From an uncultured Gammaproteobacteria bacterium (GTDB lineage Bacteria > Patescibacteriota > Patescibacteriia > UBA9934 > GWF2-40-263): a stretch of 39,086 nucleotides of DNA. The stretch is from NCBI GenBank assembly GCA_964573855.1, contig CAZNKO010000003.1, positions 1-39,086 on the forward strand, read 5' to 3'. Position numbers and translations under genes: made by a program. The notes under the pieces are model-generated. The model made no database searches. It was not told where the DNA came from and saw only the letters and a program-made list of their open reading frames with translations. The first letter of the stretch is position 1. Every line of letters starts with the position of its first letter. Below are positions 4,001 to 39,086 of the stretch, in pieces.

Positions 4001-4644
4001 CAACGTGCGCGGAGGGCGCGTTCGTGCGCTGCGGCGGACTCATTGCTTCGGTCAAAACCATCACCACGAAAAAAGGAGAGATGATGGCGTTCGTCGGGCT
4101 CGACGACACGATCGGAAAAGTGGAGGTGATCGTGTTCCCGCGGGCGTTTGCCGATTACAAGGACCTGCTCGTGCCGGACCAGATTGTGTTTGTTTCCGCC
4201 AAGGTGTCGAAGCGGGAAGGAGAGGAGGCAAAGCTGCTTGCGAATAGCGTTATCGCGGTGGAGGAAGACGAACTCGACGAGCTGGAGGCAATGCTGCGGG
4301 AAGGGAGATGGGTGGCGGGAGAACAAGTGGAACGTGGAACGTGGAACGGAGAACGTTCAGAGGGCACAGACGATCCACGATCCACGATCCACGATCCACC
4401 CTCCGGCATTTCCATTGCCCTCCGCGGCCGTCCGTCGCCCGAGACCATCGAACAGCTTCGCGAACTCTTCCAGACGCATCCGGGCTCCGAGCGCGTCTGT
4501 TTCCTCGTGGAATCCGGCGGCCGCTTGCGCCGAGTCGAAACCGATTATACGATTACGTCTTCCCCCAGAATCATTGATGACCTTGCTGCGATCGTCGGCC
4601 GACAAAATGTTATGCTTCTAACGGGGTATGATAGGGGCCGCTGA
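1090..4644 (+). CDS. dnaE: DNA polymerase III alpha subunit
   Basis: PHP-domain start MASRFVHLHVHSHFSLLEA, polymerase core (GFCPYILIVADY, PDIDADF, KMDFLGIRNLS, YRPGP), and OB fold near the C-terminus. I prefer ATG 1090 over the track's TTG 1069. Confidence 0.95.
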   Translation: MASRFVHLHVHSHFSLLEALPKVKALIGAAKKHEMDALALTDNGVLYGVIDFYEKAREADIKPIIGMDAYLAPAGRLNKRARIDAKPNRLVLLAETNEGYKNLVKLSSIGFLEGFYYKPRIDKEVLRQYAKGLIALSGGHQGEIETALSHGNEAGAEKLIQEYVEIFGKGNFFLELVDRPEIAEQESINAKLIELGGRLGVPVVATKNTFYLKPTDMEAWKILNCIKGGKTLEDFERLQAYEYDASLVSGEYMENRFKDVPAAIENTRKIADRCNITLELGKWNFADYKIPAGKTFRDVLTEKVYAELPKKVPETTEEMRRRVEYELAIIDQKGFCPYILIVADYIQWARDHGIVTTTRGSAAGSLVSYAVGISDINPLTFQLPFERFLNPERPSAPDIDADFADNRRDEVLAYVTEKYGHDKVAQICTFGTMMARGSVRDVGRGLGLPYGFVDRVAKMIPFGSQGFAMTLTRALQETPELKKLYDTEAQVRRIIELAMQIEGCARHVSIHAAGVVIAPTALTDFTPLQVDTREGKVITQYEMKTVEAAGLVKMDFLGIRNLSILGDAVAFVKKIKGVDIDLQRLPLDDKKTFELLANGHTMGVFQLGGEGMTKYLMDLKPERVEDIMAMVALYRPGPIESIPEYIKRKHNASLIRYLDPRMKDILDKSYGVIVYQDDVMLIAIKLGGYSWLEADKLRKAMGKKIPAEMAKQKEKLLYGFVQHGLSDVQAHELWKLIEPFAAYGFNKAHAASYGMVAYQTAYLKANFPAEYMTALMTAESADLEKIAEAVTECKRIEINVLPPDINESLANFTYINDHTIRFGLIAIKNLGEEVINSIIEERRVRGPFQDLADFAHRVTHRAFNKKALESLIKSGALDRFGERKQLLENMERILLYNKHAEREREQNQKTLFELSPGVMQEKLALNPSPPADMRELLAWEKELLGLYVSANPYLKVAEKLKAHLTPCAKVATCAEGAFVRCGGLIASVKTITTKKGEMMAFVGLDDTIGKVEVIVFPRAFADYKDLLVPDQIVFVSAKVSKREGEEAKLLANSVIAVEEDELDELEAMLREGRWVAGEQVERGTWNGERSEGTDDPRSTIHDPPSGISIALRGRPSPETIEQLRELFQTHPGSERVCFLVESGGRLRRVETDYTITSSPRIIDDLAAIVGRQNVMLLTGYDRGR
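4327..4398. repeat. heptamer tandem repeats inside dnaE: (GTGGAAC)x3 plus a variant, then (CGATCCA)x4
   Basis: GTGGAAC at 4327, 4334 and 4341, with GGAGAAC at 4348. CGATCCA at 4371, 4378, 4385 and 4392. The reverse complement of CGATCCA (TGGATCG) differs from TGGAACG at one base, so the two blocks are an imperfect inverted repeat. Confidence 0.85.
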
Positions 4645-6698: not shown

Positions 6699-7907
6699 AT
6701 GCCCCCCAAAAAGATTCCGGCGAGAAAAGTGCCGGTGCGCACCCCGCCTCCCGAGCCGGAAACCCTGCCCGAGGAAGCCATGGAGGTGGCGGCCCGCCCG
6801 CCGACGACCCTCTATCGCCGCATTGCGGTGAGTTTCGTCGTGCTGGTCGCGCTCATTTTGCTCGCGGTCTTGTACGTCTCCACCGTCCAGGCCACCATCC
6901 GCGTGAAGCCCGTGTCAGAGGTGGTGAAGGCCGAGCTCCTCCTCGATGTGGTGGAGATTCCGACCCAGCCGAATGAAGTGCGCGGCCGTGTGGTGTCCGG
7001 CACGCTCGGGAAGAGTGAGACGTTCAAGCCGAGCGGCGAGGGAACGAAACAAGCTGAAGGAACCGCACGCGGAACCGTCACGATCAAGAACACATCCGGG
7101 AGCGCCCAGGCGCTTGTCGTGAACACGCGGCTCCTTTCAAAAGAAGGCGTGCTGTTCCGTCTGGATGCGGATGTGAGCGTGCCGGCGAATGGAAGTGTTC
7201 AGGCAAAGGTGCATGCGGACAAACCTGGAGTTGCGGGCGATAGTGGTCCGACCACGTTTACAATTCCGGGTTTGAATGAGGCGAAACAAAAGCAGGTGTT
7301 TGCGGAAAGCACGGAGGCGTTTTCCGGCGGGGTTCGGAGCATCAAAGTCATCAGTCAAGCGGATATTGACGGGGCTGCCGCGACATTGAAAGCTGCGCTC
7401 GAGGGCGAGGCCAAAGAGATGTTGCGAGAGACCGTGAGCAATCTCTACAGCGGCGAGGCCTTTGGAACCGAAGTAGTTGAGGTAACCCCAAGCGTGGAGC
7501 CGGGCGTCGAAGCCGACGAGTTTTCCGTGGAGATGTCCGTGAAGGTCACCGGCGTCTTCTTTGACCGTAAGACGGTCGAGGATCTCGCGGTTGCCCGGCT
7601 TTACCAGTCTCTTGGCGCCGGCCGCCGGTTTGCGGGCATCAACACCCAAAGTCTGCAGGCCTCCATTGATAAAGCGGATCTCGAGGGAGAACAGGCGAGC
7701 ATCAACGTGTATCTTGATGGCCGCGCCGTGCCCTCGGCCGCGAGCGCGGCCCTCGATCCGGGCCGGTTTGTCGGGAAATCACCAGCGGAAGTGAAGAGTA
7801 TGCTCGTCCTCGAAGGGGTGGCGCTCGACGTTCAAGTGGATCTCTCGCCCTTTTGGGTGCGCAAGGTGCCGCGCCTCAAGGATCATATTTACGTGGAGAT
7901 TGAGTAA
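6699..7907 (+). CDS. hypothetical single-pass membrane protein
   Basis: AGGAGG lies 6 nt before ATG 6699. A Pro-rich N-terminus is followed by the TM helix IAVSFVVLVALILLAVLYV and a large extracytoplasmic domain. I recognised no family. Confidence 0.75.
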   Translation: MPPKKIPARKVPVRTPPPEPETLPEEAMEVAARPPTTLYRRIAVSFVVLVALILLAVLYVSTVQATIRVKPVSEVVKAELLLDVVEIPTQPNEVRGRVVSGTLGKSETFKPSGEGTKQAEGTARGTVTIKNTSGSAQALVVNTRLLSKEGVLFRLDADVSVPANGSVQAKVHADKPGVAGDSGPTTFTIPGLNEAKQKQVFAESTEAFSGGVRSIKVISQADIDGAAATLKAALEGEAKEMLRETVSNLYSGEAFGTEVVEVTPSVEPGVEADEFSVEMSVKVTGVFFDRKTVEDLAVARLYQSLGAGRRFAGINTQSLQASIDKADLEGEQASINVYLDGRAVPSAASAALDPGRFVGKSPAEVKSMLVLEGVALDVQVDLSPFWVRKVPRLKDHIYVEIE

Positions 7908-30550: not shown

Positions 30551-30686
30551 GTATGCCCCGTACGACAACTTCGACATTTTTCTGTGTGTCAGTTCTGAAT
30601 AGAAATGCTAAAACCATTCAGGGTCGTCGTTTCCTTACAAAATGCCCTCAAAGCTCTTTTAAGTTGAAGTTGTCGTACGGGGTATG
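30551..30686. repeat. start-codon hairpin element, copy 1
   Basis: GTATGCCCCGTACGACAACTTCGAC (30551-30575) and GTTGAAGTTGTCGTACGGGGTATG (30663-30686). There are 17 perfect bp (30556-30572 with 30666-30682), extendable with G-U pairs. The last ATG is the start of the SEDS gene. Confidence 0.85.
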
Positions 30687-31814
30687 AACGTACGGATATT
30701 TTTCGGCGCCCTGCGCCGCATGGACTGGCTGCTCGTGTTTTCCATGCTCGTGTTGGTTCTCTTCGGGCTCTCGGCCATCTATTCGGTGGCGCTTTCCCAA
30801 TCCGGTTCGGATTTTTTGAATCTGAAAAAACAGCTCGTGGCGGCTGCGCTCGGCCTCGGGCTGTTTTTTATTTTGACCGCCTCCAATTATCGCCTCCTCC
30901 GGAATTACAGTCTGCTCTTGTATATCCTCGGGGTCGCGGCTCTCCTCGCCGTGCTGTGGCTCGGCAGCACGGTGCGCGGGACGACCGGCTGGTTTGATTT
31001 CGGTCCGTTCCGTTTCCAACCGGTCGAGGCTATGAAGGTGATCCTGCCGGTGATGCTGGCGTCCTTTTTGAGCCAGCGGGCGCGCCGGCGTTTTGGCTTC
31101 CGGGAGCTTGTGGGGAGTCTCGGCATCACGGCTCTCCCGGTCGCGCTCACGCTTCTCCAGCCCGACCTCGGCTCTGCCATGCTTCTCGTTGCGATCTGGG
31201 GAGTCATGGTCTTGTTTGCGGGCATTCCGCGCCGGCAGGTCCTCACCCTTGTCCTTGCGGCGGTCGGGATCGGGTTTTTCGCCTGGACCGCGCTTTTTGC
31301 CGACTACCAGCGTGCTCGTCTCCTCACGTTTTTTGAACCCGAGCGCGATCCGCTCGGGCAGGGATACAATGTCACCCAAGCCATCATCGCGGTTGGTTCC
31401 GGCGGCTGGTTTGGTCGCGGCCTTGGATTTGGCTCGCAAAGCCAACTCAAGTTCATTCCTGAAAGCCAGACCGACTTTATTTTTGCCGTCATTGCCGAGG
31501 AGCTTGGATTCGTGGGAATCCTGCTCGTCTTTGCGGCTTTCGGGGCGCTCATTTCTGCCGTGTTCCGCCATGCGCGAGCCACCCACGACGACTTTGCCGC
31601 CTTTTTGCTCGTCGGGATCGGCGGTTCGCTTCTCATCCAGAGTCTTGTAAATATTGGGATGAATCTCGGGCTTATGCCGGTCACCGGACTTGGCTTTCCG
31701 CTCGTGAGCTACGGGGGAAGTTCTCTTTTATTTACCCTCATCATGCTCGGCATGGTGAGCAGTGTAGCCCGTTCATCTCCCCAAGCTGGTGGAGTCGTGG
31801 TAGAGTGGAGATAG
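30684..31814 (+). CDS. SEDS-family peptidoglycan polymerase (FtsW/RodA)
   Basis: Ten-TM profile with QPVEAMKV, QPDLGSAML and GSGGWFGRGLGFGSQSQLKFIPESQTDFIFAVIAEELGFVG. Confidence 0.9.
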   Translation: MNVRIFFGALRRMDWLLVFSMLVLVLFGLSAIYSVALSQSGSDFLNLKKQLVAAALGLGLFFILTASNYRLLRNYSLLLYILGVAALLAVLWLGSTVRGTTGWFDFGPFRFQPVEAMKVILPVMLASFLSQRARRRFGFRELVGSLGITALPVALTLLQPDLGSAMLLVAIWGVMVLFAGIPRRQVLTLVLAAVGIGFFAWTALFADYQRARLLTFFEPERDPLGQGYNVTQAIIAVGSGGWFGRGLGFGSQSQLKFIPESQTDFIFAVIAEELGFVGILLVFAAFGALISAVFRHARATHDDFAAFLLVGIGGSLLIQSLVNIGMNLGLMPVTGLGFPLVSYGGSSLLFTLIMLGMVSSVARSSPQAGGVVVEWR

Positions 31815-31962
31815 TATGCCCAGTGACTACAACTTCGATGTTTCTGCCAACGTCCGTTAACCCTAAAATATTTATGTTTCAACACAAAGAATCAGACAGC
31901 CATACGTCTTTACTCCAGAAACAGGTTCTCCTGTTTCTATCGAAGTTGTAGTACTGGGTATG
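31814..31962. repeat. start-codon hairpin element, copy 2
   Basis: GTATGCCCAGTGACTACAACTTCGAT (31814-31839) and ATCGAAGTTGTAGTACTGGGTATG (31939-31962). The left arm abuts the SEDS stop codon. The last ATG is the start of ORF 31960. Confidence 0.85.
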
Positions 31963-32349
31963 GCGAACAACCGCGCACATTTGTGGAACGAACGCCTGAA
32001 ACTCGTGTCCTACTGCCCGTTGTGTGAAACGCGTTCCCGGCCGTCAGAAGCTCGACTGGTCGGAGAGGACGGCGAGACCCATCTTCTGCACGTCACCTGT
32101 CGGAAGTGCCAAGGATCGGTTCTTGCCCTTGTGTTCGTGAATCGGGTCGGGGCGAGTTCGGTTGGCGTGGTGACGGACCTTCTCTACGAGGATGTCATCC
32201 GGTTCGGTCAGACCCGAGCCGTATCCGTGGACGATGTCTTGGAAATGCACGAGCTTTTAGGGCGGCCTCTTTCGGAGTGGCTCCACGTCTCTCCGCTCAT
32301 AAAGGAACGGCCCCGCCGGGCCCGCAAACTGCGCGGCCGGCACGCATAA
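31960..32349 (+). CDS. hypothetical zinc-ribbon protein
   Basis: CPLC ... CRKC pairs and an Arg-rich tail. The gene is flanked on both sides by start-codon hairpin elements. Confidence 0.6.
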   Translation: MANNRAHLWNERLKLVSYCPLCETRSRPSEARLVGEDGETHLLHVTCRKCQGSVLALVFVNRVGASSVGVVTDLLYEDVIRFGQTRAVSVDDVLEMHELLGRPLSEWLHVSPLIKERPRRARKLRGRHA

Positions 32350-32418
32350 TGACTTGACAGGAGGAGGGGGATCACTCACACTACCGACCATTCAGTCTTG
32401 GAATCCTCAAGGATCGGA

Positions 32419-32527
32419 TATGCCCCGTACTACAACTCTCACAGGGACTGTAGGGATGTGGCAGTAAATTGATGGTCTAAATTGTGATAGTCATTGGTAT
32501 TCCACCAGTGTTGTAGTACGGAGTATG
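32419..32527. repeat. start-codon hairpin element, copy 3
   Basis: TATGCCCCGTACTACAAC (32419-32436) and GTTGTAGTACGGAGTATG (32510-32527). The last ATG is the rplY start. Confidence 0.8.
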
Positions 32528-33304
32528 CAAAAGACGTATCATTTGAGTGCAAAAACGCGCACAGAAAAAGGCCGCAAGAACTGGTCGCTCCGCGCGGGAG
32601 ACCAGGTTCCGGCTGTTGTATACGGGGCGGCGCTCAAGGAGCCGAAGAATATTGCCGTGGACCGGAATGCTTTTACACGCCTGTTCCGCGAGGCGGGCGA
32701 AAGCTCGCTCGTCGAGCTCGAAGTGGAGGGCAGTCAGCCGCTCCCCGTGCTTATTCAGGACATTCAACTTGATCCTTTGCGGAACGAAGTCATCCACGCG
32801 GCTTTTCGCGCGGTGGACATGACAAAAGCCGTCGAGGCAGACGTGAAGCTGCACTTTACGGGCGAATCTGTAGCCATGAAATCGCTTGGAGGCACGCTCG
32901 TGCACCCGGTTGAAACTCTGCGCGTGAAAGCTCTGCCGAAGGATTTGCCGCACATGATTGAGATTGACTTGTCTCGGCTCGCGACATTTGAAGACGCTAT
33001 CCACCTGAAAGATATTGTGGTGGGGGCTGGGGTGGAATTTCTTGGGGACAAAAATCAGACCGTGGCGCTTGTGACGCCTCCGCGCTCGGAGGAAGAGTTG
33101 GCTGAACTTGATAAGGCAGTCGAGATCGATGTCACAAAAGTCGAAGTGGCGGGCAAGAAGAAAGAGGAGGAAGAGGCAGAAGGGGAGGAAGGGGCTGCGG
33201 CGGGCGAAAAGAAGCCGGAAACCGAAGCGAAGTCCGGCAAAGCCGGATCCGGCTTCGCCGGAAAAGAACTGGTGGCAAAAGAAGCTCCAAAGGCCAAGAA
33301 ATAA
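32525..33304 (+). CDS. rplY: 50S ribosomal protein L25/Ctc form
   Basis: LSAKTRTEKGRKNWSLRAGDQVPAVVYG, IQDIQLDPLRNEVIHAAF, and an acidic/Lys-rich C-terminal tail. Confidence 0.9.
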   Translation: MQKTYHLSAKTRTEKGRKNWSLRAGDQVPAVVYGAALKEPKNIAVDRNAFTRLFREAGESSLVELEVEGSQPLPVLIQDIQLDPLRNEVIHAAFRAVDMTKAVEADVKLHFTGESVAMKSLGGTLVHPVETLRVKALPKDLPHMIEIDLSRLATFEDAIHLKDIVVGAGVEFLGDKNQTVALVTPPRSEEELAELDKAVEIDVTKVEVAGKKKEEEEAEGEEGAAAGEKKPETEAKSGKAGSGFAGKELVAKEAPKAKK

Positions 33305-38295: not shown

Positions 38296-38583
38296 CTACT
38301 TTTTGGCGGCCTTTTCCTTCTTCTCGATCTTCTTGGCCTCGCGTTTCACCTTCTTCACTTTCTTGCCGGTTGGTGAGGCGGCCTTCTTGGCCACTTTCTC
38401 CTTGTACTTCTCGACCCGGCGGGCCGTGTCCACGATCTTTTGCTTGCCCGTGTAGAGCGGGTGGCAGTTGGCGCAGAGTTCGACGTGGATTTCCGGCACG
38501 GTCGAACCAACCTCGTAGGTTGCGCCGCAGGCGCAGACGATTTTGGCCTTCTCGATGTATTCAGGATGGATTCCCTTCTTCAT
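38296..38583 (-). CDS. rpmE: 50S ribosomal protein L31 with Lys-rich C-terminal extension
   Basis: MKKGIHPEY ... CACG ... [10 protein letters not shown]. Confidence 0.9.
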
Positions 38584-38658
38584 AGGTTCGCAGGTTCATA
38601 GGTTCGCAGGTTCGCAGCGGCCCCTACGGCCCTGTGAACCTTCTTTTTCTGCGATCCT
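38584..38658. repeat. AGGTTC(G/A)(C/T) x4 tandem repeat abutting the rpmE start, with inverted partner units
   Basis: AGGTTCGCAGGTTCATAGGTTCGCAGGTTCGC (38584-38615). Partner units are CTGTGAACCT (38632-38641) and CTGCGATCCT (38649-38658). On the minus strand the unit GAACCTATG is repeated, once as the real start. Confidence 0.7.
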
Positions 38659-38778
38659 ACGTTAAAAACGATGGCGCGAGTGTAGCAGGGGTGGACGGGA
38701 GCGTCAAGTCGGCGTAGACTCCCTGCGTTATGCCCCGTTAGAAGCCCGGCAGGTTTTGGCCTGACGCTAGGAATTAAT

Positions 38779-39086
38779 ATGGGAACGCCGACGGATTTGT
38801 TTTCGTACGACCTGCCGCCGGAGCGGATTGCGCAGGAGCCGGTCGAGCCGCGGGATCACTCGCGGCTTATGTTGCTTGATCGGAAAACCGGGGCATGGGA
38901 GCACAGAAAGTTTTTTGAAATTATCAATGAGCTCAAGGCAGGAGACGTTCTCGTGATGAACAACACGAAGGTTTTTAAGGCCCGTCTTCACGGCCGTCGG
39001 AGCGTCAAAAATAGAGATATCGAGATTTTTTTGCTCCGGCCTAAACCCGAGGCCATGCCTGGCAGTTCGGTTTGGGAGGTGCTGGC
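38779..39086 (+). CDS. queA: S-adenosylmethionine:tRNA ribosyltransferase-isomerase, N-terminal part (runs off right edge)
   Basis: My translation: MGTPTDLFSYDLPPERIAQEPVEPRDHSRLMLLDRKTG...AGDVLVMNNTKVFKARLHG, the typical QueA N-terminus. There is no stop before the window ends. Confidence 0.85.
   Translation, partial: MGTPTDLFSYDLPPERIAQEPVEPRDHSRLMLLDRKTGAWEHRKFFEIINELKAGDVLVMNNTKVFKARLHGRRSVKNRDIEIFLLRPKPEAMPGSSVWEVL

Follow-up and report, generated by a model that had tools for sequence, protein, structure and literature searches.

Hairpins at three consecutive start codons as probable MITE-like derivatives of a small mobile GIY-YIG nuclease gene

Three genes in a row on one bacterial contig, a SEDS gene, a small Zn-ribbon open reading frame (ORF) and rplY, each begin at the foot of a long hairpin, and the hairpins have their arm sequences in common. 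Did these structures evolve in place as regulatory RNA, or did they arrive from elsewhere? We examined the question in a 39,086-nt stretch of contig CAZNKO010000003.1 (assembly GCA_964573855.1; hereafter the window, meaning the whole stretch). An earlier reading made from the letters alone (the sequence-only reading) had put forward, among other explanations, a family like MITEs (transposable elements of the miniature inverted-repeat type), with terminal inverted repeats (TIRs) of 17-19 bp and a TATG duplication at start codons. Further copies and an empty site, described below, strongly support that proposal. In our view the hairpins probably derive, by internal deletion, from a small mobile gene for a GIY-YIG nuclease that is widespread in Patescibacteria, and are its non-autonomous, MITE-like copies. 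What the element is and that it was inserted are well supported; which enzyme mobilises it, how it integrates and how it is coupled to host translation we infer.

All three window copies lie on the + strand, are 101-140 nt long and are bracketed by TATG. Their arms (17-21 nt, 85-100% complementary in 3/3 copies) share the consensus CCC(C/A)GTAC(G/T)ACAAC. In copy 1 the left TATG, the duplicated target, is at 30552-30555 and is followed by the left TIR CCCCGTACGACAACTTCGAC (30556-30575); the right TIR GTTGAAGTTGTCGTACGGGG (30663-30682) leads into the right TATG (30683-30686), whose ATG at 30684 starts the SEDS gene (FtsW/RodA, 30684-31814). The left ATG (30553-30555) stands behind a native AAGG ribosome-binding motif and opens a relic ORF of 44 codons, MPRTTTSTFFCVSVLNRNAKTIQGRRFLTKCPQSSFKLKLSYGV plus TGA (30553-30687), in which the left repeat codes for the PRTTTST of the N-terminus and the TGA overlaps the SEDS ATG as ATGA. 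The left TATG of copy 2 (31815-31818) comes directly 3' of the SEDS stop codon TAG (31812-31814). The body of this copy (31819-31958) consists of a left arm CCCAGTGACTACAACTTCGAT with one extra G (31819-31839), a loop of 99 nt and a right arm ATCGAAGTTGTAGTACTGGG (31939-31958), and its right TATG (31959-31962) supplies the ATG at 31960 of the 129-aa Zn-ribbon ORF (31960-32349). Copy 3 runs from its left TATG (32419-32422) through a body at 32423-32523, with arms CCCCGTACTACAACTCT (32423-32439) and AGTGTTGTAGTACGGAG (32507-32523), to a right TATG (32524-32527) whose ATG at 32525 starts rplY (L25/TL5, 32525-33304). The frame from the left ATG shuts after 14 codons in copy 2 and after 15 in copy 3 (MPRTTTLTGTVGMWQ, then a stop), and none of the three relic frames contains a GIY-YIG domain. 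Every left ATG has a Shine-Dalgarno-like motif 5-6 nt upstream (AAGG in copy 1, GGAG at 5 nt in copy 2, AAGGA at 6 nt in copy 3); the right ATGs are preceded by arm sequence alone. The sequence-only reading had described the arms, the AT-richer non-conserved loops, the abutment of copy 2 on the SEDS stop and the use of the right ATG as start in all three cases, together with upstream ORFs (uORFs) of 44, 14 and 15 codons, the first with the ATGA overlap; all of this was found in the sequence and its reading frames.

A repeat finder recovered the window arms as direct families D1 and D5 and as inverted pairs I1-I5 and I8. With 0-1 mismatch, the 12-mer CCGTACNACAAC occurs in the 39 kb only in these arms (5 matches; the sixth arm has an indel), and at 2 mismatches the additional matches in the window are at chance level. 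The loops of the three copies failed to align, and blastn of the three elements against all fetched loci matched the arms and nothing beyond them. RNA folding of copies 1, 2 and 3 gave -56.6, -50.7 and -39.8 kcal/mol, with z-scores against shuffles of -5.8, -6.5 and -2.8, respectively.

If the hairpins are insertions, relatives may keep the uninterrupted sites. The Zn-ribbon protein (129 aa, CxxC...CxxC) belongs to no Pfam family and has 15 homologues, in Patescibacteria only. Five related contigs keep the order SEDS, Zn-ribbon, L25, DUF3048 with short spacers that have no arms, and all three hairpins are missing. Since relatives without hairpins have the same gene order, the bracketing of the Zn-ribbon gene in the manner of a cassette, as suggested earlier, finds no support. 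The sequence-only reading had also suggested that orthologous spacers be compared in search of empty sites, where TATG would stand once. At the Zn-ribbon start the closest relative (82% aa identity) reads ...GAGATAATTG-TATG-CCAAACGAACGCGCACAT (CCAAAC follows the TATG), and the window reads ...GGAGATAG-TATG-[140 nt]-TATG-GCGAACAACCGCGCACAT; the single TATG of the relative thus marks an empty site. At rplY, a promoter-like site read from the sequence (TTGACA-17 nt-CACACT, 32354-32382, + strand) lies upstream of copy 3. This site and a leader motif, CCATTCAGT, are common to relatives without the element, and the left ATG of copy 3 stands at the usual distance from them, so that it marks the ancestral start position; because copy 3 lies downstream of the promoter-like site, the element would be transcribed within the leader. 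That the three hairpins are insertions and did not evolve in situ is, on these comparisons, well supported.

The same arms occur far beyond this contig. We scanned one genome per species with YATRCCCCGTACKACAACT and metagenomes with CCCMGTACKACAACTTCGA. The genome scan gave 13 matches, seven of them in Patescibacteria of several classes (Adlerbacteria, two Uhrbacteria, Harrisonbacteria, Saccharibacteria and two unclassified metagenome-assembled genomes). All seven have both arms; the outer TATG is a gene start in five of them, and a minimal hairpin at locus L011 lies 12 nt from the ATG of a pilin gene. The six matches outside Patescibacteria are solo, two of them in the same planctomycete coding sequence. 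The metagenome scan found at least 120 contigs with the arms, and the search for additional copies that the sequence-only reading had called for was in this way answered. A scan of viral contigs gave three matches, all in one phage coding sequence and each a solo arm-like match attributable to chance, with no sign of the element in those contigs. The TIRs of the family read CCC(C/A)GT(A/G)C(T/G)ACAAC(TTCGA) and its reverse complement. Among 56 arm pairs, 39 are flanked by TATG/TATG, and others by AATG/AATG or CATG/CATG; since the two sides co-vary, the flanking repeat behaves like a target duplication. Removal of duplicates left 50 unique paired elements among the matches listed, on which the element counts below are based. 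Their lengths are bimodal: one class of 54-170 nt has no nuclease ORF, and the other, of 289-322 nt, has a GIY-YIG ORF. Several copies may share a contig (three in the window, two each in L117 and L101), and contigs from the same sample add more. In L101, a 1.8-kb contig, one start codon has a tandem pair of short elements (124 and 125 nt; 71% identical), the right TATG of the first doubling as the left TATG of the second. At the orthologous ribosomal protein S6 locus of L027 and L102 the element is 93.6% identical and the adjoining host gene 74%; the element there would be either more constrained than the host gene or recently exchanged.

The long class points to the parent of the hairpins. 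The interior of these ~290-320-bp elements is wholly occupied by one ORF for a ~95-aa, single-domain GIY-YIG protein. In L016 (Harrisonbacteria, 7313-7600) the left ATG opens an ORF of 95 aa that closes at a TAG within the right arm (Pfam GIY-YIG, 3e-12). It begins ATG-CCC-CGT-ACT-ACA-ACT-TCG..., coding for MPRTTTSTMLFHTYVLES...YYQSKL, with its stop in TCGAAGTTG-TAG-TAC, and dnaG starts at the ATG next after the nuclease TAG. The layout is the same in L021 (DksA-like host gene), L020 (SHMT) and eight metagenome loci: the left repeat codes for the first residues MP(R/S)TTTS, and the right repeat for ..SKL followed by TAG, 8 nt before the host ATG. Lacking a start codon, the ORF uses the left copy of the duplicated ATG, through which it inherits the promoter and ribosome-binding context of the host gene. 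Every full-length copy seen points in the same direction as the host gene. The uORFs noted in the window are real and are best understood as remains of a 95-aa GIY-YIG gene whose ends are the arms, a parent that the sequence-only reading had no means of seeing.

Catalytic-type residues Y14, Y25, R35, H39 and E59 are invariant across diverged copies of the nuclease. Pfam finds GIY-YIG alone in the 95-aa protein, with no extra domain, and the AlphaFold model (predicted local distance difference test score 91) is a bare GIY-YIG fold in which the first ~10 residues, the arm-encoded MPSTTTS, are disordered. By sequence and fold comparison, the nearest relatives in the PDB are UPF0213 protein BH0048 and the structure-specific nuclease Slx1. 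A profile search gave at least 7,939 clusters at 90% identity (E<=1e-5) and, at the 50% identity level, 3,386 representatives (E<=1e-10). About 100 of the top 118 clusters begin with MPSNTTS, MPSTTTS or MPGATTS, and those top clusters with a named source are from Patescibacteria, annotated as 'GIY-YIG nuclease family protein' or 'excinuclease ABC subunit C'. NCBIfam gave sub-threshold matches to group I intron endonucleases only (weak TIGR01453), and tblastn of the nuclease against plasmids gave three weak, uninformative matches. Some database proteins (P0024, P0145) have two GIY-YIG stretches each. A different 20-nt inverted repeat, CCCAGTAACATCACATTACT, flanks another small GIY-YIG gene (P0020) in L022 (1638-1657 and 1977-1996), not on TATG; from this locus, the TIR-flanked architecture may extend to other GIY-YIG sub-families with other ends.

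Peptides read from the left ATG of the short copies keep N- and C-terminal parts of the nuclease (for example MPSTTTSIGLWHVNV...GSRRFLAKRLEDYYSLTKAQLHPSGSKL and MPSTTTSMGFWHVYALGSCKNEKRYVGFT...), and the copy 1 peptide, MPRTTTST-FFCVSVL...TIQGRRFLTK...KLKL, aligns with both ends of the full protein. The short copies are best read as internal-deletion derivatives of the GIY-YIG element that retain both repeats; at 54-170 nt, with just the two repeats kept, they fold into long hairpins. Their spread can be seen in pairs of loci. L080 and L142 share 93% identity across all 118-119 nt and have unrelated flanks (KsgA vs PheS), and L039 and L079 are 86% identical over the full length including the loop, again with unrelated flanks. 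In Logan contigs from the four groundwater runs containing the window, the arms are 3-6x as deep as the flanks, the outer TATGs are the exact points at which similarity ends, and a ~90% identical copy of copy 3 occurs in other flanks. Near-identical copies without an ORF at unrelated genes indicate that the short copies move like MITEs. The window hairpins are three derivatives of this kind, belonging to three sub-types, on the starts of the SEDS, Zn-ribbon and rplY genes.

Start codons are the nearly exclusive address of the family: for 47/50 elements the distance to the ATG of a host ORF (>=60 aa or running off the contig) is 0-2 nt. The other three elements are at a 46-aa L34 gene, in the upstream position of the tandem pair, and at L014, which is discussed below. 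Host genes are diverse and mostly essential, including those for GrpE, S6, S16, ScpB, SerRS, KsgA, LysRS, Def, PBP2, a sigma factor, SMC, GyrA, pyruvate kinase, DnaG and PheS. Nineteen of the 20 host proteins scanned have a Pfam family, nearly all different housekeeping families, and the match begins within the first few residues in many of them, which identifies the right ATG as the real start. A logo of the reconstructed targets holds information at T(-1), A, T and G only. TATG is an unusually common start context in this genome (13/23 ATG starts of the window without a preceding element), which may be a cause or a consequence of the element's preference. Non-start intergenic TATG/CATA is about as numerous in the window as TATG starts, and TATG alone is therefore an insufficient explanation of the preference. 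For full-length copies a simple reason is at hand: since the ORF brings no ATG with it, a copy would be expressed only if it lies co-oriented on a working start. We also considered leaderless targets, or open complexes, as the attraction. A -10 box lies 7-9 nt upstream of the left ATG at ~40% of 42 sites vs 5/23 ordinary window genes; the difference is suggestive at most, not significant, and we made no use of the idea.

How might a host gene tolerate such an insertion? In the 32 short copies, the frame of the left ATG is open through the loop in 17 and the other two frames in 3 and 4. Shuffled loops gave a mean of 5.2 open frames, and 0/2000 shuffles reached 17, a statistic that counts related copies as independent. 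Lengths modulo 3 are skewed 19/8/5, toward 3n+1. Most of the 17 open copies end at the right-arm TAG, 8 nt before the host ATG; in copy 1 a TCG arm variant replaces the TAG and the frame ends on ATGA. This pattern would be expected if selection favoured translation through the stem and then re-initiation, and it suggests translational coupling to the host gene. Ribosomes would use the native ribosome-binding site to begin at the left ATG, translate through the element and melt the stem, then re-initiate at the host ATG, the handover being the stop 8 nt upstream in many copies or the ATGA overlap in copy 1. In copies 2 and 3 the short uORF might melt the left arm; alternatively, the stem might bring the upstream Shine-Dalgarno motif near the right AUG.

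Other features of the window can be given briefly. Pfam identified FTSW_RODA_SPOVE in the SEDS protein and Ribosomal_L25p and TL5_C in the rplY product. Rfam at the gathering threshold gave no match in the whole window, and a tRNA/tmRNA gene search of the window found none. The solo TATGCCCCGT that the sequence-only reading had placed upstream of queA is present at 38729-38738 (+ strand). It encodes MPR-stop, lies 46 nt upstream of the queA TATG start (38778-38781) and is followed by 39 nt and that TATG (38729-38781 in all). It is possibly a decayed fourth copy with an unrecognisable right arm; the case is weak, as a 10-mer is expected ~0.07 times per window. Nearby, at 38577-38618, a short tandem repeat of AGGTTCGC/AGGTTCAT units occupies the spacer after a minus-strand ORF; its bottom strand reads ATG AAG AAG GGA ATC CAT from the CAT at 38582-38584. 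A match to ACGGGGTATG at 4621 falls within a large ORF and has no partner arm, and we judged it due to chance.

The element inserts at (T)ATG and duplicates it, the right ATG restoring the start of the host gene. For movement we propose that the encoded nuclease would be structure-specific, like Slx1, UPF0213 and Ssn, would recognise the hairpin or cruciform formed by the repeats and cut at its foot beside TATG, and that host functions would do the joining. Apart from the relatedness of the copies in the open-frame statistic, several points weigh against the account as a whole. No full-length copy was found in the 39-kb window. The closed frames of copies 2 and 3 mean that coupling gives no direct account of how the Zn-ribbon gene and rplY are translated. 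The start bias of the short copies could reflect targeting, selection or both. At L014 (4098-4185) an 80-nt element with TATA/TATA flanks lies between the divergent smpB and argS, 9 nt before the argS ATG, and appears to be an insertion in a promoter, not on an ATG. Here each duplicated TATA makes up bases 1-4 of a -10-like hexamer (TATACT, TATAAT) that lies 7-8 nt upstream of the ATG. Finally, a single-domain GIY-YIG protein cannot itself rejoin DNA and so does not by itself account for the integration chemistry, and movement of the repeats could be the work of another enzyme, with the nuclease as a passenger or a domesticated gene.

The last point leads to a competing explanation that we regard as unlikely, namely that a conventional transposase (e.g., of the DDE type) moves the repeats in trans and the GIY-YIG protein is cargo or a domesticated Ssn-like nuclease with a role in the control of recombination or transformation. 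TIRs with a short duplication are typical of DDE elements, and the inability of a GIY-YIG domain by itself to ligate fits a second enzyme. Ssn, moreover, acts on dispersed hairpins and modulates Neisseria transformation (PMC11893778). Yet the ORF takes up the whole length of the element and runs through both repeats, with no room for other functions, and its catalytic residues are invariant across diverged copies. The co-orientation of the full-length copies seen with the host gene is a further difficulty, as is the lack of a transposase gene adjoining any copy in the gene tables inspected.

Improbable, to our mind, is an origin of the hairpins as host-evolved regulatory RNA, either RNase III processing stems or gates that sequester the start codon, with the arms read by an RNA-binding factor or the ribosome. 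The orthologous leaders of relatives have no hairpins, the same arms recur, in different classes, at unrelated genes and enclose a protein-coding gene, Rfam gave no match in the window, and the loops are relics of the nuclease ORF. Against this stand the great stability of the stems, which take in the host AUG via G-U pairs, their presumed transcription as part of leaders (copy 3, for instance, lies downstream of the promoter-like site of rplY) and the fact that Correia TIR hairpins in mRNAs can be RNase III substrates. Given arms at unrelated genes, loops that are ORF relics and relatives without hairpins, any effect on RNA would be secondary to insertion; the processing stem and the sequestering gate, both raised by the sequence-only reading, thus find no support as the origin and survive as possible secondary consequences. 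A classical homing gene, spreading between alleles of one locus only so that many loci would call for many specificities, we consider very improbable. GIY-YIG is a known homing fold and there is the weak TIGR01453 match, but the protein lacks a DNA-binding domain, being a bare catalytic domain of 95 aa. Filled and empty alleles are found among relatives, and the rRNA introns of Patescibacteria carry many homing genes (PMC11270868); the targets here, however, have TATG alone in common, nearly identical ORF-less short copies stand at unrelated genes, and TIRs with a 4-bp duplication are hallmarks of transposition and not of homing.

We therefore return to a MITE-like family derived from the GIY-YIG element. 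More tentatively, and with some doubt, we suggest that the family may represent a distinct class of prokaryotic transposable element: its sole gene, for a ~95-aa bare GIY-YIG protein, would have no promoter or start codon, would be expressed by landing on a host start and would be tolerated because translation is handed on. Such an element might have colonised much of Patescibacteria and left many in-frame MITEs at the 5' ends of essential genes, perhaps including insertions in the ribosomal RNA (rRNA) of the candidate phyla radiation (CPR). If true, this would be a new type of transposable element built on a GIY-YIG nuclease. To our knowledge, no recognised bacterial insertion sequence (IS) family uses such a nuclease. 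It would lend support to the suggestion that Ssn-like nuclease/repeat pairs began as mobile elements, and it would describe a selfish gene in very compact genomes that occupies a start codon, borrows the expression signals and returns the start codon. For annotation, it would explain why thousands of genes in Patescibacteria are called 'GIY-YIG nuclease family protein' or 'excinuclease ABC subunit C' and why long hairpins and short uORFs precede essential genes, where starts may be mis-assigned to the left ATG. Research on translation would gain natural examples on which to test re-initiation and initiation at an AUG enclosed in a 20-bp stem.

The nearest described system appears to be Ssn, although the published repeat consensus does not fit our elements. 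Ssn proteins are 94-aa single-domain GIY-YIG nucleases of single-stranded DNA (cd10448), whose genes are flanked by NTS/SRM hairpin repeats; hundreds of copies of the same repeats are scattered elsewhere (Chenal et al., Nat Commun 2025, PMC11893778). The nucleases act on these dispersed repeats and modulate Neisseria transformation, and the authors call the NTS-ssnA-NTS architecture IS-like (PMC11893778). That paper makes no mention of Patescibacteria, start codons or target duplications (PMC11893778). Alike in both systems are the ~94-95-aa single-domain GIY-YIG protein, the gene between inverted repeats and the repeats without an ORF in intergenic DNA. Unlike those of Ssn, the flanking repeats here pair with each other, with no local hairpin at each end (mean z about 0), and overlap the first and last codons of the ORF; the 4-bp (T)ATG duplication and the insertion on host start codons are also particular to our elements. 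The SRM consensus HGTCWY..YYVSBRH..WNVSBRG..RNCYNB gave no regular-expression match in the window and 22.6 kb around the 50 elements, and the control NTS was found. By clade, the present nuclease may belong with Ssn in cd10448 or with the UPF0213-like cd10456; its nearest solved relatives are UPF0213 proteins and Slx1. In literature that combines GIY-YIG or Patescibacteria with transposons, MITEs, inverted repeats or start codons, we found no description of this element.

Several other kinds of small repeat invite comparison. Correia elements (CREE) have 26-bp TIRs and a TA duplication, with no tie to start codons, and we know of no parent gene identified for them. The window family is like them in size (100-150 bp), TIRs, short target duplication, multicopy placement beside genes, co-transcription and long stems able to affect expression, and differs in having a GIY-YIG parent and in taking the start codon itself as target. 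Rickettsia palindromic elements (RPE) insert within coding sequences and are incorporated into the host protein. These too are short palindromic mobile elements tolerated through in-frame insertion and translation with the host gene, whereas the present elements lie upstream of a restored start and are read as a separate short ORF. With IS200/IS605 and REP/RAYT (REPIN) elements the family shares small size, dependence on hairpins, a target specificity of 4-5 nt and non-autonomous palindromic derivatives with conserved arms and variable loops. Those systems, however, use HUH Y1 transposases with covalent intermediates, have subterminal hairpins instead of TIRs and make no target duplication; we rejected membership in them, the protein here being GIY-YIG, subterminal hairpins being absent and the 4-bp duplication present. 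Integron attC sites were also set aside: the arm cores CTACAAC/GTTGTAG do not fit RYYYAAC/GTTRRRY, and the synteny around the Zn-ribbon gene is conserved in relatives without hairpins. As a promoter (TTGTAG as -35; TAGTAC or TATG.. as -10), the right arm misfits, by inspection, in spacing and key bases.

The catalytic fold itself links the family with GIY-YIG homing endonucleases such as I-TevI and Seg, likewise selfish genes between or within essential genes. These differ in having a DNA-binding domain and long sites, and neither TIRs nor target duplication; membership would imply an extra DNA-binding domain and a target of 14-40 bp, and we found no extra domain and target information at T(-1)ATG only. 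Closer to the present elements may be the GIY-YIG genes reported in CPR rRNA insertions that are non-introns, 'outside the context of homing' (PMC11270868). These insertions may belong to the same element family, the hairpin perhaps being excised like an intervening sequence.

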